Positions 44,228 through 59,691 of a DNA stretch of 64,000 nt are shown here, piece by piece. Where the stretch lies: IMG/VR virus record IMGVR_UViG_3300000956_000011, positions 1,212 through 65,211 of that record; one strand, written 5' to 3'. The notes beneath the pieces were generated by a model. The model was not told the origin of the DNA. It did no database searches and saw only the letters and a program-made list of their open reading frames with translations. A program made the translations under genes and the position numbers. This stretch comes from a virus. Each line of letters opens with the position of its first letter. Position 1 is the first letter of the stretch.

Positions 44228-45085
44228 TCAGTCCTCCTGCTTGCCAATGAACTTGAGCAGACCGAGGTCGTCTGCAGTTACCGGGAAACGCCCCGGTTTC
44301 AGCTCTCCGTCGTAAACACGGTCGGTTGTCTGAATGAATTTGGAGAAGGCCGTATCCACCGGACAGCTCTTCTCGCAGTCCGGAGAGGGATGCGTCAAGA
44401 AGTACATCCCGCCTTCCTCGACGACGAACATGTGCGCTTCCGTCGTGTGGTACTGCCGCATTATCTCGCCGCAAAGTTCGTCGTACACCTGGAGCAGAAT
44501 GGGCTCTGGGCACCAGTCCTCGATCTGCCTGCGCTGACGCTGGTACAGCGCCACGAACGCATCCTGGCTCATACCAACACGAAGCAAGTCTTCGGAAGCG
44601 TTGAGAACGTGCACGATCTTCGGCATGATCTTGTCTACCGACCGCACGAACTTCGCCACGTGATCCAGTTGGCGCTCGTACTTCTTGACAGTGCGAGCGA
44701 ACCAAGGGAGGCGACCCGTGAACTGTACGTAGATGCGCATCGTTGCCAGCTCTTCGCGCTTTTCCTTGGCCGCGTATTCCTCTGGCGTGATGTCGTGCGT
44801 CGGAGTATCCCCGGCATACACCTCCGCAGCGTCGTGCACGAGGGCGTACTGCGCCACCTGTCCCAGCGGGTAGCGTTCATAACCGGCGCGCAGGTTGACG
44901 AGCTCAGCCAGTGCTGGCGCTATCCAGCCGATCATGACCGTGTGGTCACTATCCGATTCGGGGGTGCCGTCGGGGTGCGCCACGCACGTTCTGTCGATAC
45001 GCCCGAAGCGCATCGCAAGTTCTCCGAGCTCAATAACTGCCTTGGTAGTACTGACGATCTCTACTTCGCCGAATGTCGGTCCCAT
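44228..45085 (-). CDS. HD-domain 5'-deoxynucleotidase/dNTPase (YfbR-like) with C-terminal extension
   Basis: RFGRIDR...ESDSDHT...LVHDAAEVYAGDTPT...VRSVDKI. Confidence 0.85.
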   Translation of the reverse strand: MGPTFGEVEIVSTTKAVIELGELAMRFGRIDRTCVAHPDGTPESDSDHTVMIGWIAPALAELVNLRAGYERYPLGQVAQYALVHDAAEVYAGDTPTHDITPEEYAAKEKREELATMRIYVQFTGRLPWFARTVKKYERQLDHVAKFVRSVDKIMPKIVHVLNASEDLLRVGMSQDAFVALYQRQRRQIEDWCPEPILLQVYDELCGEIMRQYHTTEAHMFVVEEGGMYFLTHPSPDCEKSCPVDTAFSKFIQTTDRVYDGELKPGRFPVTADDLGLLKFIGKQED

Positions 45086-45162
45086 GGTGCTGCCTTTCAG
45101 CATGAGGTGCCCTGCCTGATCCTTCATACGCCAGCCAACCAGGCCAGCGATAGTTGACCCGC

Positions 45163-45486
45163 CTAGCTAGCCGTATCCGATTCTTCGGCAGGATGCAAGC
45201 TCCACCTCAATTCGGTTACACAGACGGCGAGAGCCGCCAGTACCCTTTCCAGGGCCTTGCGGTCTCCACGAGCGAACTTGGCCGCCATGGCTGGCGCGAT
45301 GCCTGCCTCCGTCAGTGCGCCCATGCGCTGAACCACTTTGGCCTCGCTCATCGACCAGTCGTATTGCATGCCACCGAAGCCTCGTCCCGGTGCAGGCACG
45401 GGCTTGATGTAGCCCTTGACGATCCAGTTGTCCAACTGGCGTCGGGTGATCTTGGCCCAGCTGATCACCTGGTCGCTGTTCGGCAT
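45163..45486 (-). CDS. MerR-type HTH protein (107 aa)
   Basis: ITRRQLDNWIVKGYIKP...G....W...V..M..L..AGI. Confidence 0.8.
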   Translation of the reverse strand: MPNSDQVISWAKITRRQLDNWIVKGYIKPVPAPGRGFGGMQYDWSMSEAKVVQRMGALTEAGIAPAMAAKFARGDRKALERVLAALAVCVTELRWSLHPAEESDTAS

Positions 45487-45498
45487 CCTTATTCCCCT

Positions 45499-46134
45499 TC
45501 AGTACAACCGATGCAGACCGGCCATGTCTCCGGCTTGGAAGACCCGCTTGCCGGTACTGCATGGCAACGTCTTCGCCGCCATTACCTGAGACGGGTCACT
45601 GGCATGACCCAGTCCCAATATGTGACCGGTCTCGTGAACTAGGACGCCCCACACGTCGAACTTGTCCGTACAACCTGTCGGAACGTTACCCACGAAGTAC
45701 TTCCGACCAGTACTCAGGAGTACGTCCGATTCGACCATACGAGAACGCCTTGTCCACGTGCAGGTGCGCGCCACCGCCGAGAGGCTTCCCCAGCCGATCA
45801 CGCTCACCTTGTCGCTACGGCCACACTGGGTCGCACTGGGCACGCCAGGGCGCGCGGTCGTCGTACCCCGGTACACCTGCCGCACCTGGACTCCAGACAG
45901 CCCGCAAGCGTTCTGACCGCTGAAGGCGTTGGCCACCGCTCGGCGTGCCGCAGCCAGCCCGTCCACGGGCTGCCCCGTCGGATTGTAGTACCAGTTGAAG
46001 GTGTCCGTCACGCGCCAACCGGTCAACGAGTAGGCTGCGGAATCACAGCCAGGGGAGGCCATTGCCGGACTCATCGGTGTGATCACGATCATTCCCACGA
46101 TCAACGTGAGGGCGAGCACCAATGGTTTGTTCAT
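45499..46134 (-). CDS. secreted matrixin-like metzincin protease (211 aa)
   Basis: Signal peptide; HETGHILGLGH is HExxHxxGxxH; Met-turn SQVMA. Confidence 0.85.
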   Translation of the reverse strand: MNKPLVLALTLIVGMIVITPMSPAMASPGCDSAAYSLTGWRVTDTFNWYYNPTGQPVDGLAAARRAVANAFSGQNACGLSGVQVRQVYRGTTTARPGVPSATQCGRSDKVSVIGWGSLSAVARTCTWTRRSRMVESDVLLSTGRKYFVGNVPTGCTDKFDVWGVLVHETGHILGLGHASDPSQVMAAKTLPCSTGKRVFQAGDMAGLHRLY

Positions 46135-46171
46135 TGTGTTCCCTTTCATTCGTCGCCCCCGACGTTTTCGG

Positions 46172-47416
46172 TTAACGGGCAGCGCCCGGGTCCAGCAGCC
46201 ACTCGGCGGGGCGAATGGCAGGGATAATGTCGTGCCTGGTTTCCTTGTCGGCCCACATGAACAGCTCTGGGTGCGGCTGGTCCCACTTGCGTTTTCCAAG
46301 ATCGGCCTGAACCGACCACTGTGAACTGTCCCGGCCGATGGCTGCGTTCGCGTCCACCCGATCGCGAATGCTGCACTTACGGTCGAAATTGGCCTTGAAC
46401 TCGCACTTGCCCGTCAGGTAGCACACCGGTCGAAACAAGTCCGCGATGGCCTCGTACTGCCAGCGATCGCTATCCCATGCCAGGTCGAGGAAACTCTCAA
46501 CGTGCTCGTCGCCGAGATTGCGCGCTGCCGTCTTGAGACCAGCATACGGGCTGTACTCGCGAATGGCCTGTGCGATCTGCGCGAACACCAGCCGCCACTC
46601 GAACTGAGCCTGCGTGCACAACCGGTTCCCTGCGTGGTCCAGCAGGGCACGCAGGTCCGTGCAGTAGTGCAGGCGCGTGAGAGTGTTGTGCGGCAACAGA
46701 CCCCGCGCGTCCTCGGCGGGCATCCCCATGTCCACCAGCTTCTTGTATTCGCGGCCGATGACCTTGACCGCATTGTCCCAGTGCTCGCGCTGCCGCTCGG
46801 CGTCGCTGGCCAAGTCTTCCTCCTCCCAGCTCACCCGACTGCCCTCCGTGCCCGCCAGGGACGGAGGCAGCCCAACGGGCATGTCCTCCTTCACCGCGAA
46901 GCGAAGGCTTTCCTGCGCGTACACCGCCGTGCGCTGCCGGACCATCTGGTGCGTGAAGGCACGCGTGACACCCTCGATCATGAAGTGGAACTTGACGAAC
47001 TCGTACGGGGCCTTGAGCTTCGTGGCTTTCAACTGCTCCACGTATTCCTGACGCTCCGCGTGCGTCACATCCCGCAAGCTACGCGCCACCTCGCCCTTGT
47101 ACATCTTGGAAGGAGCTGCGATCACGGCCAGGGGGTCGGTCGTCATCCACAGGAGATGTACCTTGGGACCCTGCGTAGCGTCGATGGGCTCCGCCGTGAA
47201 CATGGCGCTGTCCGCCCACTTCTGCACGGTCTTTCCGGGCACCACACGGTCTGCTTCGTTCTCCAGATTCGCGTAATACTGGCGCTCCGCGAAGGACTGC
47301 TCCCGACCAGGTCTCTCGTTTTCCACCACTTCTCCGTTCAGTTCAGCCATGATCTGCGTCACGGCCTCGTCCATGTACTTGCGAGCCAACCGAAGCCCGT
47401 CTGACCCCGGTCTCAC
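46172..47416 (-). CDS. thyX: flavin-dependent thymidylate synthase-like protein (variant motif; start may be internal)
   Basis: EGVTRAFTHQMVRQRTAVYAQESLRF; EDARGLLP; RLCTQAQFEWR. Confidence 0.85.
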   Translation of the reverse strand: MRPGSDGLRLARKYMDEAVTQIMAELNGEVVENERPGREQSFAERQYYANLENEADRVVPGKTVQKWADSAMFTAEPIDATQGPKVHLLWMTTDPLAVIAAPSKMYKGEVARSLRDVTHAERQEYVEQLKATKLKAPYEFVKFHFMIEGVTRAFTHQMVRQRTAVYAQESLRFAVKEDMPVGLPPSLAGTEGSRVSWEEEDLASDAERQREHWDNAVKVIGREYKKLVDMGMPAEDARGLLPHNTLTRLHYCTDLRALLDHAGNRLCTQAQFEWRLVFAQIAQAIREYSPYAGLKTAARNLGDEHVESFLDLAWDSDRWQYEAIADLFRPVCYLTGKCEFKANFDRKCSIRDRVDANAAIGRDSSQWSVQADLGKRKWDQPHPELFMWADKETRHDIIPAIRPAEWLLDPGAAR

Positions 47417-47673
47417 TTGGCACCAACGCGAGGGCGTCTGCCACTACCCGCACAATGCCGACAGGTCGCGCGGCCACCTAGCGCTCCGACGCGCCACCCC
47501 TGGCCCTTGCAGTGCCAGCACTTCTTCTCTGGCCCGAAAATCAGGCTCAGCTTCCACACAGCGGCGGCTATCCCCAGGAGCAAGACGATGGACCACGGCG
47601 CAGGAGTGGGTGCCCCCAGCACCACGAACAACGCGATGATGCCGCCGACGACGAGAACAGGTCCGACGATCAT
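47413..47673 (-). CDS. 2-TM protein with DnaJ-type Zn-finger repeats (86 aa)
   Basis: CWHCKGQG and CRHCAGSG after two TM helices. Confidence 0.72.
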   Translation of the reverse strand: MIVGPVLVVGGIIALFVVLGAPTPAPWSIVLLLGIAAAVWKLSLIFGPEKKCWHCKGQGWRVGALGGRATCRHCAGSGRRPRVGAK

Positions 47674-47933
47674 TTGGCCACCTTCATTTCTGGGAGCGTA
47701 ACGCCCCACTCGTCCGCGATGGCGTTCACAATGTCCAGCAGGCAGGTCTCGTATCCCTCGCGGAACAACCCGTCGTCCTCGGTGTGGTCATCCCACGGCA
47801 GGTCGATTAGTTCGAACGTTGCTTCGTAGCCCCGCTCCAACTCCTCGTCACCCGGTTCATCATTCTTCAACCACGCGGCCAACTGCTTCACACACGCATG
47901 GACGTGTTTGGTCACTGGTGTATTTTCACTCAT
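47670..47933 (-). CDS. hypothetical acidic protein (87 aa)
   Basis: Overlaps neighbours; SD GGGAGG. Confidence 0.65.
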   Translation of the reverse strand: MSENTPVTKHVHACVKQLAAWLKNDEPGDEELERGYEATFELIDLPWDDHTEDDGLFREGYETCLLDIVNAIADEWGVTLPEMKVAK

Positions 47934-48162
47934 CGTTCATGGCCTCCCGACTATTGCAATTCACTTCCCGCGCTACGACGGCCGCCACGTGCAGAGCGCG
48001 GGGAACGGGGCGACCATGCGCGACGAGCAGTTCGGCAAGCCCTGCGGCCAAACTGGGCCAGGTGAGAGCCAGCCTGCGGCATTGCTCTTCGCGGTAAATG
48101 CCTGACCGCTCGGTGAGGTCCAGCAGTTTGCCCAGCGCTGCGAACTGCTCGTCGCCGTCCAT
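47926..48162 (-). CDS. hypothetical protein (78 aa)
   Basis: Overlaps neighbours. Confidence 0.6.
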   Translation of the reverse strand: MDGDEQFAALGKLLDLTERSGIYREEQCRRLALTWPSLAAGLAELLVAHGRPVPRALHVAAVVAREVNCNSREAMNDE

Positions 48163-48623
48163 CAGACCGGCACCACCTTGAACACGTTGCCCGTGTCCTC
48201 GTCCTTGCCGATGGCGTAACCCTCTGTCGACGTGCCGACGACCGTCAGCGTGATAACCGAGGACTGCTCCGCGCGCTCCGCTGCGGTCCAGTCGTTCTCA
48301 CCGAGCTTGGCAGCCAACTTGCGCAGGCGGTCGGCTGCCTGCTCGTCGCTCTCCAGGGGCTTGCTCTCTGGTAGGAGCTCGTTCGGGAAGTCGTGAGGCT
48401 GGCTCTCTGGGCGGTAAATCCAGAGTTGGCCACGGGTCAGGGTGTCTACGTAGATGCCACCCTGGCCGGAACGCGCCTTCTTGCGCAAGTACGAAATAGC
48501 CGACGAGACCTGCGCCGCGCTGGTCTTGGCCTCTCTCATGATATTGCTAATGTGGACGGCTTTGTTCGGATTATCCCGGAAGTACTTCTCGATGGTCTTC
48601 GAGTGGGTGCCGTTTCTTGCCAT
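48162..48623 (-). CDS. winged-HTH protein (153 aa)
   Basis: ISNIMREAKTSAAQVSSAISYLRKK...wing LWIYRP. Confidence 0.68.
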   Translation of the reverse strand: MARNGTHSKTIEKYFRDNPNKAVHISNIMREAKTSAAQVSSAISYLRKKARSGQGGIYVDTLTRGQLWIYRPESQPHDFPNELLPESKPLESDEQAADRLRKLAAKLGENDWTAAERAEQSSVITLTVVGTSTEGYAIGKDEDTGNVFKVVPV

Positions 48624-48712
48624 GATGCTGCCTTTCACTGCCTGGTGAGCCGGTACGTGATGCACAGTACCGGCTCAGCTACAGGCTTGCGGTAGAACGA
48701 AAGAAGTGGAAC

Positions 48713-49420
48713 TTACTGCTCGCCAGCGTCGAACGGGATGATGAGTCCGTTGTGCGCGTAGCTGAACGTGGCGAGATCCTGGACGATCCGTCGGGCAAGG
48801 TCTGCAGGTGGGAGGCCTTCGGGCGGGACACCTGGCATGCGGTGCAGTTCTCCACTGAACTGCCTGCGCGTCTCCTCGGTCATTGGCGTGCCATCCAGCA
48901 GACCAGGTTCGTAGCCCCATACCGCGACCCTGCCGTCCCCGGCCAGTTCCCGTGCAGCCACTCTCAAGGCCATGCTGAGGGCTGCCTTGCTGGCGCAGTA
49001 GGCAACGCTGTTGCGCCGGGCGATGCGAGCGCTGTTGCTGCTGATGGCCACGAACTTCTTGGTATTGCCCTCGCGTTCAGGCCGAACCGGACTGGCGAGG
49101 AAGTGCCGCAACAGTTCCATGGGGCCAGTGACGTTGACGCCGAACGAAGTAGACATCTTGGCGGCGAGATACGCGTCCATTATCTCAGTGGTCATGTTCA
49201 TGCCAACTGTGCACACGACAATATCCGGCTTGACTTCGGTCAACACCTCGCCGATCCTGGCGCTGTGCAACAGATCCAGCTTGATGAACTCCTCGTTGAT
49301 ACCTGCGGTGTGAATGGTTCCGAACTCCCAGTCGCACGCAAACATCTCGTCCACGATAGCGCTCCCGAGACTGTCGGTTGCAGCCCCGACGACGAGCACG
49401 TCTGGTTCGACCTCAGGCAT
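48713..49420 (-). CDS. short-chain dehydrogenase/reductase (235 aa)
   Basis: VLVVGAA..SLG, VNVTG, ISS (catalytic Ser), YCASK (YxxxK), PG...TPM. Confidence 0.88.
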   Translation of the reverse strand: MPEVEPDVLVVGAATDSLGSAIVDEMFACDWEFGTIHTAGINEEFIKLDLLHSARIGEVLTEVKPDIVVCTVGMNMTTEIMDAYLAAKMSTSFGVNVTGPMELLRHFLASPVRPEREGNTKKFVAISSNSARIARRNSVAYCASKAALSMALRVAARELAGDGRVAVWGYEPGLLDGTPMTEETRRQFSGELHRMPGVPPEGLPPADLARRIVQDLATFSYAHNGLIIPFDAGEQ

Positions 49421-50042
49421 TGTTCTTCGCATCCCGAATGTTGATTCGCGGCTTGATGGCTGGCATGCCTTCTTTGTCGTTGTTGTTGTAGTAGCTGAAC
49501 CGGCCGTACGAGGAAGAGCAGTGCTGCATGACCTCGAACCCGTTTTTGCGCAAGGCAACACCGACCGACGCGTAGGTCTGCTCGTCCGGCACCTTGAAAG
49601 ACGCGTGCGCCATCACAGCGGCTTGGCGTCCGTGCGCGCAGGCATCGGCGAGGCTGCCGTGGTACGGGCTGAAGCCACTGTGGACACGCATGAGCTCGAG
49701 CCGGTAGTCGAGCTTCTCGTTGCCCAGGAACCAGTACGACACCGAGTAGGCCGACTCGATGGGCAAGGTGGTCACCTCGTCCTCGGCCTGATTGAAGGCC
49801 ACCCACCCGCGTCGCAGCGCACGCGCCATGAAGCCGAACAACGCTTCATCACTGGCGAAGTACAACGCCATCTCATCGATGAAGTACGTGGGGCCGAACA
49901 ACCCACGCACGCGCTCGTTGGCCATATGCCACCTGTCGTCAACCTTCTCCAGAATGTGGTCGACATTTCGGATAGTCACCTTGTCGGGCGTCATCGCCTC
50001 CCGACCCATCATCTGTTGAATGGAGTCCAGAAAATTCGACAT
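49413..50042 (-). CDS. VOC/glyoxalase-fold protein (209 aa)
   Basis: Two beta-alpha-beta-beta-beta units with IDEMAL, RLELM and AHASFKV, matching VOC metal-ligand positions. Confidence 0.55.
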   Translation of the reverse strand: MSNFLDSIQQMMGREAMTPDKVTIRNVDHILEKVDDRWHMANERVRGLFGPTYFIDEMALYFASDEALFGFMARALRRGWVAFNQAEDEVTTLPIESAYSVSYWFLGNEKLDYRLELMRVHSGFSPYHGSLADACAHGRQAAVMAHASFKVPDEQTYASVGVALRKNGFEVMQHCSSSYGRFSYYNNNDKEGMPAIKPRINIRDAKNNA

Positions 50043-50056
50043 GTTGTCCACTTTGC

Positions 50057-53000
50057 CTAACCCTTCAACTTGTCCGGATCTAGGACCCAGAGCTCCGTCG
50101 CGTAAATCGCCCGCCTGTATTCTCGCCGCTTGAACCCACGCACCAACAAGAGATGACGCTTCGGGTCTAGTTCCCATATCAGGTTCTTGTACTTCTCATA
50201 CAGACCCCCGTACCTGTGTACCGTAATGGTCAGGGGTCCGGTTTCGTCTTCACCGAGAATTACCGTCCAGTTCACATACTGCGGCTCTTTCACCGTGGAC
50301 GGATCAAGCTCGTCGCCAGTGCGAGAGCGGTGCAGCTCGTATAGGTCCTTCAGGTTGCGCTCGCGCACCGCCACCAAAGCCACGTGTTCACCCGTCAGCG
50401 GCTCGTACGGCACGTCTTCGGCCCTACTGGTGGGCCTGCGCATGCCTTCCGGCTCGGCGTTGCGGTTGAGCCAACCACGCGCCTTGCTGAGCTTGCGCGC
50501 CAACAGCTTGATCTCGAAAGGATCATCGAGGTCACAGAAGTCCCGCACCTTCTCCATGGTGGCCGGTCCGATGCCTTTCACAGCAACGAAGTCATCCCAG
50601 CCGAGCCCGGTCAGACGCGTAGCTTCGTTGCCCACGAGCGTGCGCCACTCCACCATAGCTAATGCTGTCTTGTCGCCAATGCCAGGGATCTGAACCAGAC
50701 CGGCCAAGAGCCCGTCCCCGACCACCGACCACGATACCTGGCTGCGGGCAGGATCCGGAGGGAGGATAGCAATGCCTTTCGCAGCCGCTTCCTTAAGCAT
50801 GTCGAAACCACGCTCGCCAGGCTTGCAATCGAACTTCTGCAGAGACGCGCAGTAGAACTCCAGCGGGTATTTCACCTTCAGCCACATTGTCCAGTACGCG
50901 ATCATGGCGTACGAAATGGAGTGCGCTGAGTTGAACGCGTACGCGCCAGCGGTTACGAGCTGCTTCCATATCTTGCCTGCGAACAATTCCTTGACGCCGT
51001 TGGCCTTGCAGCCGTCCATGAACAGTTCGCGCATGCGGTTGAACGCCTGCTCGCCTTGCTTCTTGGAAATGAGCTTGCGGATCTTAGCCGCGTTCTCCCA
51101 GCTGAAGTTCGCGAGCTTGCGCACCACCTGTAGGATCTGCTCCTGGTACACGATCTGATAGTTGGTCCACTGGGTAATCTCGTCAACCACCGGATGAAGT
51201 CGCTCCGCCTTCTTACGGCCGTGTTTGACCTGAATGTACTCGGCCGCTGCACCGCTGTGCAACGGACCCGGCCTACTCAGCGCGTTGATGTCGCCCAATT
51301 CCATGAAGTTGTCTGGCTTCACCTCTCGATTTACGGAGCGCATGGCGCGGCCGTCAAACTGAAAGACACCAACTACTTCGTTGCGCTTGAAGGCTTCGTA
51401 CACTTCCTCCTCGTCGAGCGGAACCGTATACAATTCCTCGAGGGTCATGTCGATCATCTTCAGGCACCGAGCGATGACGTTCATTGTGGTCAGACCCAGG
51501 GCATCAATCTTCAGCGCGTTGATGTGCTCAGCGTCATACTTGTCGAAACTGACCACATTGCGCACCAGCCCGGTCTTGGCGTCCTCGCGAGTGTACACGG
51601 CCGCGCCCTCGGTCAGGGGCTGGTTGGCCACCACGAGCCCAGCCGCGTGCACGCTGAACGTCTTCAGGCTGCCCTCCAACAGTTCCGCCTTACGCAGGTC
51701 CGGGAACTGCCTCATGATGGCAGCCACTTTCGGGAACATGGCGATGCTGTCCTCAATGGTTGCGTTACCGCGCAGGTCACCCGAGGACCGTTCAATGATC
51801 ATTTCTTTCACGGTCTTGACCGCGTACTCCGGGATGCGGTGCACGCGCGCAATGTCATCGAGGCTATTCTTGCCCTTGTAGTTCGTGAAGGTACCAATGT
51901 TGCCCACGCGCTCTTCGCCATACAGCTCAACGAGATGCTGGCGGATCTCCCACCTGCGCTCGTCGTCGAAGTCCAGGTCGATATCAGGCAGGTCATGGCG
52001 GTTGGCGTCGATGAATCTCTCGAACAGCAAAGTGGGGAACAGCATGGGGTTGACCTCGGTGATGCGCAGTAGGTAGCACACGAGGCTGGCTGCACCAGAA
52101 CCACGGGCGGGGCCAACGGCAATGTCGTTGTTCTTAGCCCAGCGAACCAATTCCGCGATGACCAGGAAGTAGTCCTCGAACTTCTTGGACAGAATGAGGT
52201 CCATCTCGTACTTGACGCGCTCGCCGTAAATGCGCCGTTCTTTTTCGGTCAGCGAACTGAAACCCCGATACCCCCATCCTTCCCGACACCACTCCCACAG
52301 CAACTCGTCCGACGGGCGCTCGCCCGGGAACTTGAGCTCCTGGAACTTAGGGATGGTGACGTTGCACCGCTCGGCTATTTCCAGGGTGTTGTCCATGGCC
52401 TCATCGGCAAAGGAGCGGTCCAGCCCCGTCCGCATCAGATCCCGATGAATTTCCCCAACTGGGCGCGGAGCTAGCACAATGTCATACTCCCAGCTTTGCG
52501 ACTGGGCCTCCACGGTGTTGCCTTTGCCGCCACGGCCGATTGCGTGCAACACCGGATACATCGACTTAAGCTTCGGATCGGGGTAGTGGCAATCCAGCGT
52601 GGCCACTAGCGGCAGGTCCATGCGCGCGCCCAACTCCGCTAGAACTCCGTTGTACAACCGCTGACGCTTGAGCTGCGGGTGCGGCATGACTTCCAGGTAG
52701 TAACGGTCGGGAAAGGTGTCCGCGAACCACCCTGCTACCCGTTGGGCCGCAGCCATGTCTGCTCGGTCACGCTCGGGGTTCAGCTTGCCACCAATAGCCT
52801 TGTCCGCCAGCAAGCCACCCATGCACCCGCTCAGTACGATCAAGCCCTCGTTGTACTGCTGGAGCATCTCACTGGTAACCGTTGGCTTGTACTTGAAGTT
52901 GCGCCAAGTAGCGGAGACAAGGCGATTCAGGTTTCGATAACCCTCTTCACTTTCTGCAATCACGGTCAGGTGGTGCTTGAGCTGCCCCCGTTCGTCGCCC

Positions 53001-53215
53001 GTCTCGCAGTAGGCCTCCACGCCGAATATCATCTTGATACCCGCCTGTTGGCAGGCTTTCTCTCCTTTGACGTGTCCGCTGACGTTACCATGATCTGTTA
53101 GAGAGAAAGCGGGATATCCAAGCGCGGCCACCGCATTCACATGCTCCTCCACCGGACGGAACCCGTCTAGATAGCTATTGGTGGCATGGTGGTGAAGGTT
53201 GACGAACTGTCTCAA
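50057..53215 (-). CDS. dnaE: DNA polymerase III alpha subunit (phage DnaE)
   Basis: PHP LHHHATNSYLDG and LTDHG; RGSGAASLV; catalytic PDIDLDF; KIDALGL; YAFNSAHS. TTG 53215 after GGAGG. Confidence 0.95.
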   Translation of the reverse strand: MRQFVNLHHHATNSYLDGFRPVEEHVNAVAALGYPAFSLTDHGNVSGHVKGEKACQQAGIKMIFGVEAYCETGDERGQLKHHLTVIAESEEGYRNLNRLVSATWRNFKYKPTVTSEMLQQYNEGLIVLSGCMGGLLADKAIGGKLNPERDRADMAAAQRVAGWFADTFPDRYYLEVMPHPQLKRQRLYNGVLAELGARMDLPLVATLDCHYPDPKLKSMYPVLHAIGRGGKGNTVEAQSQSWEYDIVLAPRPVGEIHRDLMRTGLDRSFADEAMDNTLEIAERCNVTIPKFQELKFPGERPSDELLWEWCREGWGYRGFSSLTEKERRIYGERVKYEMDLILSKKFEDYFLVIAELVRWAKNNDIAVGPARGSGAASLVCYLLRITEVNPMLFPTLLFERFIDANRHDLPDIDLDFDDERRWEIRQHLVELYGEERVGNIGTFTNYKGKNSLDDIARVHRIPEYAVKTVKEMIIERSSGDLRGNATIEDSIAMFPKVAAIMRQFPDLRKAELLEGSLKTFSVHAAGLVVANQPLTEGAAVYTREDAKTGLVRNVVSFDKYDAEHINALKIDALGLTTMNVIARCLKMIDMTLEELYTVPLDEEEVYEAFKRNEVVGVFQFDGRAMRSVNREVKPDNFMELGDINALSRPGPLHSGAAAEYIQVKHGRKKAERLHPVVDEITQWTNYQIVYQEQILQVVRKLANFSWENAAKIRKLISKKQGEQAFNRMRELFMDGCKANGVKELFAGKIWKQLVTAGAYAFNSAHSISYAMIAYWTMWLKVKYPLEFYCASLQKFDCKPGERGFDMLKEAAAKGIAILPPDPARSQVSWSVVGDGLLAGLVQIPGIGDKTALAMVEWRTLVGNEATRLTGLGWDDFVAVKGIGPATMEKVRDFCDLDDPFEIKLLARKLSKARGWLNRNAEPEGMRRPTSRAEDVPYEPLTGEHVALVAVRERNLKDLYELHRSRTGDELDPSTVKEPQYVNWTVILGEDETGPLTITVHRYGGLYEKYKNLIWELDPKRHLLLVRGFKRREYRRAIYATELWVLDPDKLKG

Positions 53216-53297
53216 GTGAACCTCCGTTGGGGGAGGGCGAGGGCTCGCACACATGCAGCTGGGGGAATACATGGTGCGGTAGCCCTCGCCCGGATCT

Positions 53298-53849
53298 TTA
53301 CGGCTTCGGGTGCTCGATCACGGGCCGTGGTCCGCTGCCCTGCCCGCGCTTGCGCGGAGTGGGCTTGGACCTCTCCTCACCAGGTACCGGCACCTCGCCG
53401 ACGACGGGTAGGTTCGTCGCTGTCTGCTCCTCCTGGGGTAGGGGGTCGCCGTAGTGCATTTCGGCCAACCTCCGAGCCTGCTCTGGGTTGAGCGGACCCA
53501 GCTCGAGGCTGTTGACCTGCCCCACGTACGCCAGCCCAGGAGCCTGCACCGTAGATGCCTGGGGTTCGTCGCCCCACTCGACGCCGTCGTCCATGTTGAT
53601 GATCGCGAAGGCCAGCGTATTGATCATATCGAGCATGGTCTCGCGCGGGTGTTCTTTGGTGCCGTTCAACAGGATGTTCCCCCCGCGCCACACCATGTTC
53701 CGAACGCGCTTGGCCTTCTCCAGCACCCGACTGACGTTACCGCGCCAGCCCTGGTCTCTCCAGGAATCGCCGTAATGCAGGTTCTTACTTGCGAAGAGCC
53801 GGGCGGCCTCCGCGAAAACTTCCTCTACACGTGCCTGGCTGTTGCTCAC
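53298..53849 (-). CDS. DUF1599 / nucleotide-modification-associated domain 1 (all-alpha NTP pyrophosphatase-like)
   Basis: LFASKNLHYGDSW...K..R...ETMLDMINT. Confidence 0.72.
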   Translation of the reverse strand: MSNSQARVEEVFAEAARLFASKNLHYGDSWRDQGWRGNVSRVLEKAKRVRNMVWRGGNILLNGTKEHPRETMLDMINTLAFAIINMDDGVEWGDEPQASTVQAPGLAYVGQVNSLELGPLNPEQARRLAEMHYGDPLPQEEQTATNLPVVGEVPVPGEERSKPTPRKRGQGSGPRPVIEHPKP

Positions 53850-54082
53850 TTCTCGGTCTCCTCTTCCTCGTCTAGCTTCAGGGCTGTCAAGGGTGGGTTG
53901 AATTCGACCTGCTCCCAGCTGTCCCGGTTGAATTCCGTGAGGACGTATTCGGGGTCCACGACCCCGTGCTCGTTGACCTGCGCCACGTATAGCTGGAGCA
54001 CCCGCTCGTCCGTCACGTACCAATCCCGCGCTTGCGGGTAGTCACGCTCGCCATAGTGCGTACGAACCCGAACACCCATCAC
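53846..54082 (-). CDS. hypothetical protein (78 aa)
   Basis: 4-bp overlaps with both neighbours. Confidence 0.65.
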   Translation of the reverse strand: MMGVRVRTHYGERDYPQARDWYVTDERVLQLYVAQVNEHGVVDPEYVLTEFNRDSWEQVEFNPPLTALKLDEEEETEK

Positions 54083-54735
54083 ACATTCCTCTCTTCTCTC
54101 CAGGAGAGAATCCTGTCAGCGAAGTATTCCCGAGCCTGCTCTAGGTCGGAGATACGAAGGCTCTCGCCATCTTTGTTGTACGGCCTATCGATGATGTGCG
54201 CAGGCAAGCCCACACGATCCGCCAGCGCACATTGCTCCGGCTCGTCATCAAGCACACCGACCACACGCTCTATGCCTACCAGACTGGCCAGGTTGCGGTA
54301 CTTCTGAGACCCGAATAGGACACCGTCGTACTGAATGCCGTTGTTGCGCAACCAAAAGCGCGTGTCTGGGTCGATGTTGTCAAGCCGCAGCCACGGCCGC
54401 GTCGTACACACCCACACTTCGGCCCCAGCTTGCCGCAAGACCCACGTAAGCCCCTTGGCCCCATGACGTACCGGCATCCCCCTCTTGAAGCGCCCTTGGC
54501 GGTAACCAAGCTTCATCTGGCGGTACGTGATCTTACTGACGCCAAAGCACTTCCAGTACGGCATGCTGCCGTCCCAATGGCGAATGACGGGGCGCTGCAA
54601 GTACATCTCCGCATACTCCGCGAAGTGCTCATGGTACTCCCCGAGTGTGCCGTCAATGTCCAGCCCGACCACTGGCCGCAGCACCTGCCCCGGTGCGGCA
54701 TACATCGTCTTGCGCGGGGCTAGTTTGAGCTTCAT
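54079..54735 (-). CDS. HAD-family 5'(3')-deoxyribonucleotidase-like phosphatase (218 aa)
   Basis: Motifs GLDIDGT, CTTRP, QKY, VLDDEP. Confidence 0.85.
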   Translation of the reverse strand: MKLKLAPRKTMYAAPGQVLRPVVGLDIDGTLGEYHEHFAEYAEMYLQRPVIRHWDGSMPYWKCFGVSKITYRQMKLGYRQGRFKRGMPVRHGAKGLTWVLRQAGAEVWVCTTRPWLRLDNIDPDTRFWLRNNGIQYDGVLFGSQKYRNLASLVGIERVVGVLDDEPEQCALADRVGLPAHIIDRPYNKDGESLRISDLEQAREYFADRILSWREERNV

Positions 54736-55004
54736 TCCCCCTCCGGCGCGCAACACATGGCAACCCAGTTCGGACTTTCCTCCGGGCAGTGGTCCAGCGC
54801 GATCTTCTTGCGAATGGGAGTATCCGGGACGTACCGCGTGCGGCAACGAGCGCATCGACCGCCGAACATAGCCTTGCGCCAACCAGGGGTCGCCAAAAGC
54901 TCTTCAACCGCTTGTTGATACTCCTCCCGTGTGCGATCTACAGTGCCGTTGCATATCCCACAAAAGGCACGTGTTAGCTCGTGGATGCATTGCTCATCAC
55001 TCAC
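54732..55004 (-). CDS. Cys-rich Zn-binding protein (90 aa)
   Basis: CIHE...CGIC; CARC...CC. Confidence 0.68.
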   Translation of the reverse strand: MSDEQCIHELTRAFCGICNGTVDRTREEYQQAVEELLATPGWRKAMFGGRCARCRTRYVPDTPIRKKIALDHCPEESPNWVAMCCAPEGE

Positions 55005-55387
55005 GGCAACACAACCCCCTCCACCGTTGCGGGTGGTTGGTAGTTGGGACCTTTCAGGACCTTACCGTCCTCGCGCATTATTGGTTTGCCGTCGACGAGT
55101 TTGGACATATTGGAGGCGTGAACACGGCGCAATGCCTCGTCAATGTCAAGACCCAAGGCCACTCCCGTTCCGTATAAGACGTAGACGGCATCTGCGATCT
55201 CCTTGGCCACACGACCCAGGCAACTCACGTTTTCTGGGTCGAGCATCAGCTCTGCCAATTCGTCACCGAGCTCGGCGTATTCCTCGGCCATCAACCTCCA
55301 GCGTAGCTGAACAACATCGAGGGATCTTTCATTGATGTGGCTACCGAAGATTTCGTGGAACTCACGAACCATCTCCTGTGGCGTCAT
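55001..55387 (-). CDS. MazG-like (DR2231/PRA-PH type) dNTP pyrophosphohydrolase
   Basis: VREFH..F; LMAEEYAEL; KEIADAVYV; VHASNMSK...REDGKVLKGPNY. Confidence 0.88.
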   Translation of the reverse strand: MTPQEMVREFHEIFGSHINERSLDVVQLRWRLMAEEYAELGDELAELMLDPENVSCLGRVAKEIADAVYVLYGTGVALGLDIDEALRRVHASNMSKLVDGKPIMREDGKVLKGPNYQPPATVEGVVLP

Positions 55388-56181
55388 GAAAACTCCTTCA
55401 CTTTGCGCGCAGTGGCTTCGTAGGCCTCATGGCTCAGTACACCCTTTTGCCAGCGCCCGTAGCGGCCGACTCGCAGAATGGAGGGTAGGCAGTCACAGTC
55501 CGCGCTGAGCGGCTTATGAAATTCAGCCACGTCTTTCAGCGGTGGCTTGCGCCTATGCCCAGGCCATTCAACTGTTGTGTAACCGAAGACATTGCACGCG
55601 CGGTACCAACTGACGTCGTTACCACCCTGGCACCACACAGTGAAAGGTGGAACGCGGTACCCGTAGTCTTGTTCGACACTTTGCCGCCCAGGCGCGTCCC
55701 CGATGGCCCAGCACTTAACAGACGAGAAAGTGTGCTGGTCGCCTGCCTGGCACAACACTGGAGCGGGCAGGCTGCTGATGCACGCGTCGGGCATGAAGTC
55801 ACTCAGCATCGGCACAATGTCGCCTGGCGACAACCGCACGTCTACGATCCGGTCAGTAAACCGATGCCAGAGACGATCGTAGGTTGCTCGCAAATCCCAG
55901 GCGAGATGGTTGCCCGCGTATTGCTGCGGACTCACCGGGAGGGAGAGGCTTCCGTATACCTTACGCCGATATTCTTCAACTTCACCGTACAGCCGGTACT
56001 GAACCTCCTCGCCATTTCCCTCTGTGACACCGGGAATAGGCGCGTGCAGGTACTGGCATCCGTACAAATGAGACGGACGTGAAACGCTCAGGATCTTCAC
56101 CTCCGCCCCGGTGTTCTCCGCAGCTTGTGCGCTGATGAGCCCAGCTGGACCGCAGCCCAGCACCAATACCCGCGCGGTCAT
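55384..56181 (-). CDS. FAD-dependent oxidoreductase, UDP-galactopyranose mutase-like (265 aa)
   Basis: VLVLGCGPAGL (GxGxxG); HLYGCQYLH resembles UGM HxYGxHxFH; GRYGRW resembles GRLAEY. Confidence 0.72.
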   Translation of the reverse strand: MTARVLVLGCGPAGLISAQAAENTGAEVKILSVSRPSHLYGCQYLHAPIPGVTEGNGEEVQYRLYGEVEEYRRKVYGSLSLPVSPQQYAGNHLAWDLRATYDRLWHRFTDRIVDVRLSPGDIVPMLSDFMPDACISSLPAPVLCQAGDQHTFSSVKCWAIGDAPGRQSVEQDYGYRVPPFTVWCQGGNDVSWYRACNVFGYTTVEWPGHRRKPPLKDVAEFHKPLSADCDCLPSILRVGRYGRWQKGVLSHEAYEATARKVKEFS

Positions 56182-56447
56182 GCGGACTGCCCGTATTCTC
56201 GAGCTTGATTGGCGGTCATGTGAACCATGACGCCCATTCCCCCTCGGACTTGTTCTGGCAGAAAGGCGAGGAGGGCTTTTCGCGTGTCCGCGTAGGTCTT
56301 GTCTAGTGCGTCGATGGCGTTCTGGATGCGACGCCAGTCTGTTTCGAACAGTTCGTCGTCTACGAGTACTTCGTGGGCCTCCCTCTCTCTGGATACGCTG
56401 ACCTCCTCGTAGCCGTCTCGCCACTGAACGTTGATCTCGCACTTCAC
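56178..56447 (-). CDS. hypothetical protein (89 aa)
   Basis: 4-bp overlaps with both neighbours. Confidence 0.65.
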   Translation of the reverse strand: MKCEINVQWRDGYEEVSVSREREAHEVLVDDELFETDWRRIQNAIDALDKTYADTRKALLAFLPEQVRGGMGVMVHMTANQAREYGQSA

Positions 56448-56875
56448 GTCAATCCCCTTTCAGTAGGCCACATCAACGGAATCTCCAGCGGAGTCGTTGG
56501 TGGCATTCGTCGTGCGTAGTATTCCGGGTTTACCCGAATGAGATTGCTTCTCTGAGACAAATGGAACCGGGGGTTGCCGCACCACCGTGGCGGGACCGGC
56601 GCGAGCGGCCAGCCCGCGCGGCTCAGGGCAACATGAGCACGAATTACCCGTTGTTCGGGATTGTACCCTCGTCGCACCATCTCTCTCTCGGCAGAAGCTA
56701 CGTAGTGCAGCAGAGCGGCGGGGTGTTCTCCCCATGCCCGCGCGTCCCGCCAGCTCAGGTCCCCGACGTAGATGTTGCGCAGGCATTGCAATCCTTCGAA
56801 GACAATTTCGAAAATATGCTCGTTGGCAAGCACTTCCAGGTTCTTGTGCGTGCTGGAAAATGGTAGCCAGATCAT
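56444..56875 (-). CDS. DenV/pyrimidine-dimer-glycosylase-like protein (MSMEG_6728 family), divergent (143 aa)
   Basis: WLPF...W..HPAALLHY...EMVRRG...P.W.GNPRFHLSQRSNLIRVNPEYY. Confidence 0.68.
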   Translation of the reverse strand: MIWLPFSSTHKNLEVLANEHIFEIVFEGLQCLRNIYVGDLSWRDARAWGEHPAALLHYVASAEREMVRRGYNPEQRVIRAHVALSRAGWPLAPVPPRWCGNPRFHLSQRSNLIRVNPEYYARRMPPTTPLEIPLMWPTERGLT

Positions 56876-59691
56876 TGTCGGTCCAGTTCTTTGACCACTT
56901 TGGTCAGCGTCGGCTCCGCGCGCAGGTAGCCCTTGCTCAGTCGACGAACCACCCGCCACCCCAACAAGTTCTTCACGACCTCCTGGGCTTCTACTTGGTG
57001 CAGGCCACCGAACTCCTGGAAGTCTCGCATCTTGAACGGTCCGCTGATGCATTGCTTGAGCACGCCCAGCACGTCATCGTTAGCCGCCAAGTATTGCCGC
57101 ACGGACTTTTCGTTCTTCTCAGCTACCTTACGTTCATGAATTACTGTGGCGCTGTGTTCGAGATAACCGAAGGAGTCCATGCCATAGAAAGCATTCAGAA
57201 GTCGCTCGGCGGCCTCAACGTGCTCGTAGTCCACCACCAGAAGCTCACCCGTTTGATCGGTGCTGAACAGTCGACCCGCAACCGCCACCGCCAGTCTCGC
57301 CAGCTTAATTCGTACATTCTCAGCTTGGACGAGCGGTGGATCCGGTACGTAACGCCTGCCCATTTCCTGGGCTCTCTCCAGGACATAGTTTTCAACCCCT
57401 GATTCCCAAACTATCTGATCCGATTTACGAGACCATACCCAGTTGATGAGCTGGCTGCACAAGTGCGCCGTGTACCGGTGACGCACGCGCGGAGGCCTGC
57501 GACTGTTGATCTCATCTGCGCGCACGTCCTGGCTAGCCACGGCTAGCGCAAAGTCAAATCGGGCTATGTCCTCCGGGTTGTTGGCCAAGCCCTTCACCGC
57601 GTCCATGGCCCCGTTGGTATAGCTGTTGATCGTGACGCCTTCCACCGGATTGGCGACGTAGATCAATCTGGTACGTGCCTGCGTTTCACTGCTCACAATC
57701 TTGTTCACTTGGGCCACCCCGGAGGAGCGCACGCTCGACATCTGTTCTAGAATTCCTTTACCGGCCAAACCACCGAATTCATCTAGAACAACCAACCTGC
57801 GGTCATTGAGCGGTATGACACCCCAACTGATGATCCAGTTGCCACTCATCTGTTGCACACCACCAACAAGACCGGCGAAGGTCGCACCCTCACATGTGGT
57901 CAGCACGCCAGCGCGGTAGTGCTGGCACAAGCGTTTGGCGGCCTCGCTCTTGCCGGTACGAGTGTCGCCGATCACCAAAAGTTCCAGCCAGCCCTTACCG
58001 ACGTCCTGACCCTTCAATTGAAAGTCAAGGACGCTGTGCCACACCAGGTCATAGGCGATATGCAGCGCGGGACGGTGATAGATCTTGGTGACGTTCGCCT
58101 CCAGGTCGGCTGCTATCTCCTTCATCTTGTCGATGCAGGATTGTTCCTCCCCCGGCCAGAAAGCAGTGAGGTTCTTATATATCCCATCTGTCATTGTGAA
58201 CTGGTCGATGTTCGCCGAGGTCTCTTCACTTTGCCAGGCCTGCAATACCGAGCGACCCGTCTCGGTATCGAGAGTGTTCATACCCGTGAACTGGACCTTG
58301 ATGTTCGTCGGCGTGCGGTACTTGCCCACATTGAACAGACGCCTGCTTAGGTTCGTCACCTGACCGAAGGCCTCGTCCGCAGGCGGTATGAGGATCATCT
58401 CCTCGATAGAGTACCGCTGTGTTTCGTCAACCTCAACGTCCGGGCAGCTCGTCGGTATCTTTACGTGACCTAGCAACACCTTCTTACGCGCAGCACTGTT
58501 CTTGTTCAGCGCCTCCAGCACGACCGGATCGTGCTCCGGTATGTCAATCTCAATATGGTTACGACCACTGATAGGGCACCGCGCACACCGCGCGCCACCA
58601 CCTTCATTGCAGTTGAACTCCACCCGCTTAGGTCCGACGTAAGCAGGTTGAACTTTGCCCGCAACCGTGGCATTGAAAGTGAGTGGCCGTTCCATGATTT
58701 CGGCGTCCATGGTGGCCTCTAGACCAACCACTTGCGCCTGTTGGCTGCGGAGACCGGACAGGTGGGAGGTCCGATTGGCGTTCTCGCTGGACGTCTTCAT
58801 CAGGGTGTAGAAGTCGCTTGCGGTGTAACCCTGATCCACGAAGTAGTTCGTCAGGTCATCGCCGTTGCCCTTGAGCGGCAAGGCGATGATATGTACCTGC
58901 TTGGCGAACAGCTCGAGGCTGCGAGCTACGCGTCTGGCCCCGCGTCTACCTGCGTCGTCGCAGTCGTAACAGACGTACACGATCTTGCCTTCGAAGCGTT
59001 CGTTCCAACGCTCGTCCCATGCGCCAGCCCCTGCGGTATGACTCACGGTCGGCAATCCGTGTTGCCTGCCGATGATGCAGTCCATCTCACCTTCGGTGAT
59101 GATGACGGTATCGCTTTCGGCGAGAATGTCTACCCCGAAAAGCTGGCGACTACCGGTACCGACCGCCCAGCTTTTCATCTTGTCTTTCGCTTGGCGCGCT
59201 GCCGGATTGTACCGGCGCACGTTCAGCAATTCACCGTCCGCGTCCCGTACCGGAATAGTGAAGCGCTCGCCGTCCCAGCCTATCTGGAACTGCTCGATGG
59301 TTTCCCTTGTCAGGCCGCGCTTTTCACGCATGACGCGCAAGTGCTGACGACTGGCCAACAGTGCGTCAACGTAACCCTCTAGCAGTGCCTCTCGGGGCAG
59401 TTTGCCCGCAGCAACAGGCTTTTCCGGACTCGCTTGCTTGGCAGGCTTTTCTTTCTTGAAGTCCCCAGACTGCCGCATGACGCTGACAAGACTGCGAATG
59501 CTCATTCCGCCACATTGGCTGAAACACGTGAAGACACTGTCCTGGAAGTTATAGCTGGCACTCGGGGACTTTGAAGTGTCTACGTCTTCGCAAATGGGGC
59601 AGTAGCCACGCTGTTCGTCGTCGTCGTTGACGCGACCGACCAACCAAGGCTTCAGCTGGTCTCGCACCGATTGTGGTGTCGGCTTGCCCAT
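56872..59691 (-). CDS. DnaG-type primase (Zn finger + Toprim) fused to an MCM-like AAA+ helicase (939 aa)
   Basis: CPIC...CFSQC; Toprim ITEGEMD and YDCDDAG; MCM-like LLVIGDTRTGKS, LDEF, VANP, IARFD. Confidence 0.85.
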   Translation of the reverse strand: MGKPTPQSVRDQLKPWLVGRVNDDDEQRGYCPICEDVDTSKSPSASYNFQDSVFTCFSQCGGMSIRSLVSVMRQSGDFKKEKPAKQASPEKPVAAGKLPREALLEGYVDALLASRQHLRVMREKRGLTRETIEQFQIGWDGERFTIPVRDADGELLNVRRYNPAARQAKDKMKSWAVGTGSRQLFGVDILAESDTVIITEGEMDCIIGRQHGLPTVSHTAGAGAWDERWNERFEGKIVYVCYDCDDAGRRGARRVARSLELFAKQVHIIALPLKGNGDDLTNYFVDQGYTASDFYTLMKTSSENANRTSHLSGLRSQQAQVVGLEATMDAEIMERPLTFNATVAGKVQPAYVGPKRVEFNCNEGGGARCARCPISGRNHIEIDIPEHDPVVLEALNKNSAARKKVLLGHVKIPTSCPDVEVDETQRYSIEEMILIPPADEAFGQVTNLSRRLFNVGKYRTPTNIKVQFTGMNTLDTETGRSVLQAWQSEETSANIDQFTMTDGIYKNLTAFWPGEEQSCIDKMKEIAADLEANVTKIYHRPALHIAYDLVWHSVLDFQLKGQDVGKGWLELLVIGDTRTGKSEAAKRLCQHYRAGVLTTCEGATFAGLVGGVQQMSGNWIISWGVIPLNDRRLVVLDEFGGLAGKGILEQMSSVRSSGVAQVNKIVSSETQARTRLIYVANPVEGVTINSYTNGAMDAVKGLANNPEDIARFDFALAVASQDVRADEINSRRPPRVRHRYTAHLCSQLINWVWSRKSDQIVWESGVENYVLERAQEMGRRYVPDPPLVQAENVRIKLARLAVAVAGRLFSTDQTGELLVVDYEHVEAAERLLNAFYGMDSFGYLEHSATVIHERKVAEKNEKSVRQYLAANDDVLGVLKQCISGPFKMRDFQEFGGLHQVEAQEVVKNLLGWRVVRRLSKGYLRAEPTLTKVVKELDRQ

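Follow-up and report, generated by a model that had tools for sequence, protein, structure and literature searches.

A conserved replication-operon module centred on a non-canonical ThyX-like enzyme in an uncultured actinobacterial siphovirus

The 64,000-nucleotide stretch analysed here (IMG/VR record IMGVR_UViG_3300000956_000011; hereafter the window) is nearly the entire 65.4-kb viral record, which has direct terminal repeats and is judged complete. Between positions 44,228 and 56,875 a block of enzyme genes surrounds a phage-encoded DnaE polymerase. We find this block to be the replication operon of an uncultured actinobacterial siphovirus, represented by its complete genome, and a nucleotide-precursor module lies within the operon. 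The module is real, conserved, tightly packed, centred on a non-canonical ThyX, and unexplained. A first-pass annotation made from the letters alone had proposed that the block makes an undescribed hypermodified nucleotide, a C5-substituted uracil such as a polyhydroxyalkyl-U. Our tentative preference is for an ordinary operon for thymidylate and the deoxynucleoside triphosphate (dNTP) pool, with canonical virion DNA, and we hold it to be slightly likelier than a modified-thymidine pathway.

The ThyX-like enzyme

Gene order in the block was taken from open reading frame (ORF) lists, G+C values at third codon positions (GC3) and translations, and families were assigned from Pfam, PHROGs and NCBIfam. 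The genes on which the argument chiefly turns are the following.

55384..56181, minus strand: compact virus-only flavin adenine dinucleotide (FAD) flavoprotein, 265 aa (SEA-PHAGES 'oxidoreductase', phrog_8720)
55001..55387, minus strand: MazG-like all-alpha NTP pyrophosphohydrolase (Pfam PRA-PH, phrog_671), overlapping the flavoprotein gene by 4 bp
54079..54735, minus strand: HAD-superfamily phosphatase, 218 aa (DIDGTL motif, phrog_415; SEA-PHAGES 'phosphatase')
50057..53272, minus strand: DnaE-type replicative polymerase, 1071 aa (Pfam PHP, pol III alpha, fingers, HhH)
48713..49432, minus strand: short-chain dehydrogenase/reductase (SDR), FabG-like (Pfam adh_short, phrog_3142)
46172..47374, minus strand: long ThyX-like flavoenzyme, 400 aa (Pfam Thy1, PF02511, 111 bits vs a cut-off of 24.8; Cys-bearing C-terminal extension)

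The ThyX-like protein does have the Thy1 fold, as its first-pass description as a ThyX variant implied; its AlphaFold2 model (pLDDT 81.5) finds T. maritima ThyX by Foldseek at 1e-9, with a template-modelling (TM) score by target of 0.73. Its residues were mapped through a HMMER alignment to this T. maritima enzyme (8rep/4gtf), and invariance was taken from 44 homologues. On the side that binds deoxyuridine monophosphate (dUMP), Gln75, Arg78, Arg80, Ser88, Arg90, Arg147 and Arg174 are all kept and are invariant in the ThyX-like homologues, while His53 is replaced by Leu, His79 by Gln, Asn85 by Ala, Tyr91 by Phe and His178 by Gln. The ThyX motif RHR-x7-S-x-R-Y accordingly reads RQR-x7-S-L-R-F in the ThyX-like protein, and the Gln and the Phe are invariant in the 44 homologues. 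In ThyX, Tyr91 and Ser88 are strictly conserved and critical, and His53 stacks on the folate and the reduced flavin and hydrogen-bonds Tyr91 and Asn85 (PMC11940539). On the carbon-donor side, the trio of His53, Tyr91 and Asn85 is thus lost entirely in the ThyX-like protein. The alignment indicates an enzyme altered on its folate/carbon-activation side and intact on its dUMP side, and such a protein should not be labelled a bona fide ThyX. It is also the phage's only thymidylate-synthase-like enzyme, since the genome holds a single Thy1-family gene and gave no match to ThyA (PF00303).

A conserved C-terminal extension of ~120 residues carries Cys318, Cys324 and Cys334. These covary with Cys253: five cultured homologues have all four, the phages Krampus and Wollypog have lost the whole set, and Pbunavirus and Wifcevirus keep at least three of them. 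A catalytic Fe-S site made of the four was considered and rejected on account of their joint loss in Krampus and Wollypog; they probably form one dispensable structural metal site. A complex prediction for the ThyX-like protein (residues 47–400) with the flavoprotein gave a score of 0.00, which we count neither for nor against binding.

The module in other phages

Three uncultured relatives (L036, L038 and L039), whose ThyX-like proteins are 63–74% identical to that of the window, carry the module in the same gene order and are collinear throughout, as is expected of close kin. A DnaE-seeded scan of IMG/VR returned mostly distant DnaE loci without the module, and relatives were therefore found through identical-protein look-ups; megablast of the block against cultured phages gave no match. 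The core of the module, consisting of the flavoprotein, HAD, DnaE and ThyX-like genes and, in some phages, the SDR gene, is shared with ~126 cultured actinophages of the SEA-PHAGES clusters D, DV, DG, EF, AE and BN. We have seen it in PBI1 (D), Sadboi (DV), Krampus (EF), Wollypog (AE), Lizz (BN), Beyoncage (DG), Leopard and Nocardia phage P3.1, with SDR homologues in PBI1, Sadboi, P3.1 and the locus L005. Identity to the proteins of the window is 33–44% for the flavoprotein, 42–55% for the HAD phosphatase, 41–46% for DnaE, 35–48% for the ThyX-like protein and, where it is present, 32–40% for the SDR; the DnaE of the window, 45% identical to cultured actinophage DnaE, is 36% identical to that of Pbunavirus E217 and 32% to that of ECML-117. 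As in the window, a Cas4-like exonuclease, a RecA-like ATPase and the primase/helicase flank the module.

Among 50,697 phage records, the flavoprotein occurs in 46 from Gordonia, 36 from Microbacterium, 32 from Mycobacterium, 9 from Streptomyces, 2 from Arthrobacter and 1 from Nocardia, and the long ThyX-like protein in 46 from Gordonia, 36 from Microbacterium and 28 from Mycobacterium, so that the counts of the two by genus agree (46/46, 36/36 and 28/32). The same genera supply 87 cultured phage records with a homologue of the HAD phosphatase, and DnaE alone occurs in 1432 records. Phage annotation already knows this gene set: a genome announcement reports these phamilies with their cluster distribution but gives no functional reading (PMC11385102), and published functions for this actinophage set are limited to annotation labels. 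Under those labels, in phages such as PBI1, Sadboi/Xenia2, Krampus, Wollypog and Lizz, it comprises oxidoreductase, phosphatase, FabG-like reductase, DnaE, MazG and ThyX-like genes, with a methyltransferase in some.

Relative to this set, the clade of the window adds VOC-like, HD, DUF1599-like and M10 peptidase genes and several small genes, and it lacks the class-I S-adenosylmethionine (SAM) methyltransferase that clusters D, DV and DG carry between flavoprotein and DnaE. No cultured phage has a match to the VOC-like gene, and the HD and DUF1599-like genes are found at tblastn level in the closest clade only. The expectation that the genes of the block co-occur as a unit in related phages thus holds for the core, across six clusters, and fails for the VOC-like, HD and Nmad1-like genes, which by their distribution look like clade-specific add-ons rather than core.

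Could the genes stand together by chance or pure descent, unrelated to one another and kept in company because replication modules are inherited as blocks? Collinearity of the close relatives across the whole region makes co-occurrence among them functionally uninformative, and gene order varies among clusters: Krampus has its ThyX-like gene immediately behind the flavoprotein gene, and other phages have it downstream of DnaE. Yet the core survives this extensive rearrangement and persists at 23–48% identity across six clusters where most neighbouring genes do not, and we regard pure descent as quite improbable.

Two side observations concern these genomes. The methyltransferase loci are PBI1 gp60 (L004 7064–7594), L040 16139–16867 and L042 14879–15481. 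DnaE is split into two genes in Wollypog, Krampus, Beyoncage and Leopard and is a single gene in the window; the two Wollypog halves are separated by an HNH endonuclease gene.

The flavoprotein and the other enzymes of the block

All the genes named in the first-pass annotation are present, on the minus strand, although three of its family labels need qualification: the DUF1599 call is sub-threshold, the VOC call comes from an ESM-Atlas model only, and the flavoprotein, called UGM-like after UDP-galactopyranose mutase (UGM, Glf), is so at fold level only. The flavoprotein does have a GR2-type FAD-binding fold with an N-terminal GxGxxG. Against a closer kinship, solved UGMs measure 365–470 aa and are thus ~100–200 residues longer than its 265 aa, the GLF domain (Pfam PF03275) has no match in the genome, and identity to UGM is 10–15%, with many other GR2 flavoenzymes scoring within 2 Z units. 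The flavoprotein family is virus-only.

The call of a MazG-like pyrophosphatase is confirmed by PF01503 (PRA-PH; 35.8 bits vs a cut-off of 21.3) and phrog_671 (6e-31). Its best solved relative is DR2231 (1e-11), reportedly a dUTP-specific MazG, an assignment attributed to Goncalves and colleagues in 2011. By this kinship the protein looks like a dUTPase, and a dUTPase-like MazG would feed ordinary synthesis of deoxythymidine monophosphate (dTMP). The HAD phosphatase has DIDGTL as its DxDxT motif I and matches phrog_415 (6e-14); Pfam and PDB sequence searches with it gave no match. Between the MazG and HAD genes the otherwise overlapping operon has a ~265-nt non-coding gap (54736–55000), matched by an equal-sized gap in L036 (2095–2364), which may hold a promoter or leader.

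Four further enzyme-like genes figure in the discussion below.

56444..56875, minus strand: DenV-like protein of the pyrimidine-dimer glycosylase family, 143 aa (Pfam Pyr_excise, 24.5 bits, cut-off 23)
53298..53852, minus strand: DUF1599/Nmad1-like helical protein, a sub-threshold family call (Pfam DUF1599, 18.6 bits; phrog_1485)
49413..50042, minus strand: VOC (glyoxalase)-fold-like protein, 209 aa, clade-specific (ESM-Atlas model)
44228..45127, minus strand: HD-domain phosphohydrolase of the YfbR-like 5'-deoxynucleotidase family, clade-specific (Pfam HD_3, 56 bits; YfbR-like, 31 bits)

The DUF1599/Nmad1 assignment falls short: Pfam PF07659 gives 18.6 bits (E 0.0024) against a cut-off of 25, next to a match to phrog_1485 at 8e-7. 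A small four-sequence hidden Markov model of the clade matches Lizz gp53, Sadboi gp73 and Krampus gp54 weakly, a Pfam search finds no DUF1599 in the neighbours' proteins, and a comparison with the C-terminal halves of Wifcevirus/Pbunavirus HAD fusions reaches an hhalign probability of 45% over 31 columns only. The VOC-like protein has no sequence match in Pfam, PHROG, NCBIfam or PDB; its Atlas model, the sole evidence for the fold, has TM scores of 0.57–0.62 (0.68–0.79 by hit) to Glyoxalase_4 clusters. PDB relatives of the HD phosphohydrolase are 3kh1, HDDC2, YfbR and DatZ. The DenV-like protein scores 49 bits to the NCBIfam MSMEG_6728 family, below the cut-off of that family, and its homologues adjoin the flavoprotein gene in Krampus, where these two genes and the ThyX-like gene overlap, and lie upstream of DnaE in Beyoncage.

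Perhaps the flavoprotein, HAD, SDR and VOC-like proteins have nothing to do with DNA and serve cofactor or one-carbon supply, or host sugar or cell-envelope metabolism, their genes being accessory metabolic riders in an early/replication operon. We consider this unlikely: the flavoprotein is confined to viruses, its distribution strictly follows that of the ThyX-like gene rather than that of any host clade, and its position between primase and DnaE is kept across six clusters whose hosts differ in their cell envelopes.

A possible ordinary thymidylate operon

In the reading that we tentatively favour, the MazG-like enzyme would convert dUTP to dUMP, the ThyX-like enzyme would methylate dUMP at C5 to give thymidylate, and the flavoprotein that travels with it would be its redox or one-carbon helper. 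This helper role is proposed because the ThyX-like protein has lost His53 and Tyr91 on the folate/NADPH side. The HAD and HD enzymes would trim the pools of deoxynucleoside monophosphates (dNMPs), and the DenV-like protein would repair DNA; the SDR, VOC-like and Nmad1-like proteins would have no step. In favour of an ordinary operon counts the annotation of the core as ordinary replication genes in the ~126 cultured actinophages. So do the DR2231-like MazG, the single Thy1-family gene with its intact dUMP side, the failure to find AADT, GT-A, GT-B, GLF, thymidylate kinase or dNK in the genome, and the avoidance of restriction palindromes described below, TG-containing ones included.

Several points weigh against it. 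The ThyX-like protein falls below the NCBIfam TIGR02170 equivalog cut-off (85.5 vs 87.9 bits), and the replacement of His53, His79, Tyr91 and His178 is invariant in its family. That the flavoprotein acts as a helper is conjecture. Simply making dTMP does not require a flavoprotein, HAD phosphatase or SDR devoted to the task, yet these co-occur by genus with the ThyX-like protein, and in Krampus the flavoprotein and ThyX-like genes overlap. Lastly, a homologous ThyX-like gene sits in Pbunavirus, phages with modified thymidine.

Relation to modified thymidines

The polyhydroxyalkyl-U idea has real precedents in the sugar-alcohol thymidine of Pbunavirus and the dihydroxypentyl-uracil of SP-15. 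The DNA of Pbunavirus F8 resists enzymes with TG-containing sites (Yee et al., 2025; PMC12191111), and F8 and 14-1 contain thymidine derivatives of 362 and 390 Da that replace about one-quarter of T and have been interpreted as a cyclised pentose and an erythrose/threose sugar alcohol (390 and 362 Da, respectively), with the genes unassigned (PMC12191111). Pbunavirus and Wifcevirus, whose hosts are Proteobacteria, have a cassette in which a homologous ThyX-like gene without the RHR histidine lies side by side with a homologous DnaE gene; the actinophage profile detects the ThyX-like protein of E217 at 3e-31, and the two have in common the RxR without histidine, RLC and PxCxxTGxC, as is also the case for ECML-117. 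Their neighbourhood also contains a HAD phosphatase, a protein that combines a FAD motif with a C-terminal GRxxxW and, in ECML-117, an SDR. Orthology of the flavoprotein and HAD phosphatase with the E217 and ECML-117 proteins was considered but not borne out, profile and pairwise comparisons matching only the Rossmann motif, at family level, or nothing.

SP-15 is likened to the window by description, not by sequence. Its 5-(4',5'-dihydroxypentyl)uracil is made as nucleoside triphosphate, according to work cited in PMC5977210, and it has two Thy1-family genes, with an acyl-carrier-protein reductase listed just before one of them (Kropinski et al., 2018; PMC5977210). A polyhydroxyalkyl-uracil is thus made at nucleotide level in a phage in which a Thy1-family gene adjoins an SDR of acyl-carrier-protein-reductase type; unlike the window, SP-15 has a second Thy1 gene and a ten-gene sugar cluster with glycosyltransferases. 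In classical thymidine hypermodification, with a ThyA-type dUMP hydroxymethylase, a 5-hydroxymethyldeoxyuridine (5-hmdU) DNA kinase and AADT/aGPT-Pplase (Lee et al., 2018, 2021; PMC8989533), C5 of dUMP is likewise modified before replication, with nucleotide-pool enzymes (PMC8989533). In the genome of the window the ThyA-type enzyme and AADT (aGPT-Pplase2, PF18724) have no match; no P-loop kinase turned up among the scanned proteins, although no search was aimed at the 5-hmdU DNA kinase. Thymidylate kinase, deoxynucleoside kinase (dNK) and trimeric dUTPase were not found in the genome either, and neither GT-A nor GT-B glycosyltransferases were, in line with the first-pass remark that no glycosyltransferase is visible.

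As a side observation, a cluster of the classical thymidine-hypermodification type does occur in an actinophage, Microbacterium phage Hasitha (MZ622182.1, 30400–36400), with a thymidylate synthase homologue, an aGPT-Pplase1-domain protein, two glycosyltransferases, a thymidylate kinase and MazG. In Microbacterium phage SBlackberry (MZ747515.1, 38054–39274) a PurA-like adenylosuccinate synthetase gene adjoins those for DNA polymerase I and dUTPase and could be a PurZ-type 2-aminoadenine pathway.

Applied to the window, thymidine hypermodification would have the ThyX-like enzyme put a hydroxymethyl or a sugar-derived polyhydroxyalkyl group, instead of methyl, on C5 of dUMP, perhaps through a flavin-N5 iminium adduct, chemistry common to ThyX and UGM. 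The HAD enzyme would then dephosphorylate a side chain derived from a sugar phosphate, the SDR and VOC-like proteins would set its oxidation state or stereochemistry, MazG and HD enzymes would deplete competing nucleotides, and the phage DnaE would incorporate the product. We rate this as possible but rather unlikely. A link between genes and modification is not established anywhere, and a link of genes of the window's type to any such base is conjecture. Pbunavirus marks TG thymidines only, which a pool enzyme alone cannot explain, and the actinophage flavoprotein and HAD phosphatase match the Pbunavirus/Wifcevirus proteins merely at the level of Rossmann motif or family. No kinase for a modified dNMP was found in the genome. 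That a mutase, an epimerase and a ketoreductase supply a carbon unit to the ThyX-like enzyme is pure inference, and the scheme leans partly on the VOC-like, HD and Nmad1-like genes, which lie outside the conserved core.

Restriction palindromes

Protection of TG thymidines should spare restriction palindromes that contain TG from counter-selection. We therefore computed observed-to-expected ratios for 6-mer palindromes in three classes, given below in the order TG-containing, other T-containing and GC-only; this is a proxy calibrated on E217, with a small sample and with hosts that differ in their restriction repertoires. E217, the positive control, gave 1.03, 0.73 and 0.72 (Mann-Whitney p 0.007). 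Of the module-bearing actinophages, Krampus (MH271301.1, whole genome) gave 1.05, 0.75 and 0.54 (p 0.0007) and Leopard 0.90, 0.68 and 0.45 (p 0.05). Relief of the TG class was absent in all three module-less phages of Krampus's host, namely Quhwah (0.53, 0.47, 0.44), SBlackberry (0.86, 0.75, 0.61) and Hasitha (0.71, 0.79, 0.65), and was not clear in PBI1, Sadboi, Wollypog, Lizz, Beyoncage and P3.1, all taken as partial genomes.

The window gave 0.84 (z −4.0), 0.95 and 0.68 and is thus without the TG signature of E217. Its relatives L036 and L038 behave like it, with TG-class ratios of 0.84, 0.84 and 0.83 in the window and these two closest relatives, and such avoidance speaks against a modified thymidine in the window's own lineage. 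Single sites are strongly depleted in the window: CCGCGG (SacII) occurs 5 times against 34 expected, GCCGGC (NaeI) 0 against 18.6, GGCGCC (NarI) 2 against 22.6, GGGCCC (ApaI) 0 against 5, and CTGCAG 11 against 21.8. The depletion of GC-rich sites agrees with an actinobacterial host whose restriction systems are GC-rich and with C and G that are not protected. In its avoidance of TG-containing and of GC-only restriction palindromes the genome resembles unprotected DNA, and the TG signature is seen in one or two module-bearing actinophage lineages, not in that of the window. Krampus unexpectedly shows the same pattern as E217, whose relatives contain modified thymidine at TG, and a TG-context modification may have gone unnoticed in its cluster, EF. 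The literature was searched for modified nucleosides in clusters D, DV and EF and for resistance of their DNA to restriction, and nothing was found.

What either reading would mean

If the operon is an ordinary one, a replication module known from hundreds of actinophages has been found once more, and the only gain is a cleaner annotation: a ThyX-like protein that should not pass for a bona fide ThyX, a flavoprotein family confined to viruses, and a MazG that is dUTPase-like. If thymidine hypermodification were to prove true, the first flavin-dependent nucleotide enzyme to alkylate or hydroxymethylate C5 would belong to the ThyX family, and the missing gene set for the sugar-alcohol thymidines of Pbunavirus and a base of the dihydroxypentyl-uracil type would be in hand, so that genes would be assigned to the modification found in 2025 in therapeutic Pseudomonas phages. 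The phage of the window and more than 100 cultured actinophages (D, DV, DG, EF and others; phages of teaching collections) would then bear an unnoticed thymidine modification. Because cultured relatives exist, the question is directly testable, and cluster EF (Krampus) is, judging by its palindrome signature, where one should look first.

Remaining genes of the operon

The window has a G+C content of ~60% with nearly every gene on the minus strand, and the genes of the enzyme block, all co-oriented, mostly overlap or lie less than 30 bp apart. Beside those listed above, the operon contains the following.

56872..59691, minus strand: primase (DnaG-type)–MCM-type helicase fusion (Pfam Toprim_2 and MCM), the upstream border of the block
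56178..56447, minus strand: small ORF, 89 aa, between the DenV-like and flavoprotein genes (GC3 0.69)
53846..54082, minus strand: small ORF, 78 aa (GC3 0.79), kept in L036, L038 and L039
47413..48665, minus strand: four small genes, one of 153–167 aa followed by ORFs of 78, 87 and 98 aa (high GC3)
45499..46150, minus strand: M10-type metallopeptidase, putatively secreted (Pfam Peptidase_M10, 36 bits)
45163..45486, minus strand: 107-aa protein, kept in L036, L038 and L039

The primase/helicase is 40% identical to its counterparts in Wollypog and Krampus. At the position of the 89-aa ORF a gene of 86–88 aa is called in L036, L038 and L039, and the four small genes at 47413..48665 are conserved in these three relatives only; the 153–167-aa protein among them looks by eye like a putative winged helix, and the 98-aa ORF matches DUF5351 at 29 bits. 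A family search with the 107-aa protein gave no match. A matrixin-type (M10) peptidase gene is placed inside the replication operon and was found among the relatives in L036 only; its product begins with a hydrophobic stretch that, judged by eye, resembles a signal peptide, and it probably lies outside the nucleotide module.

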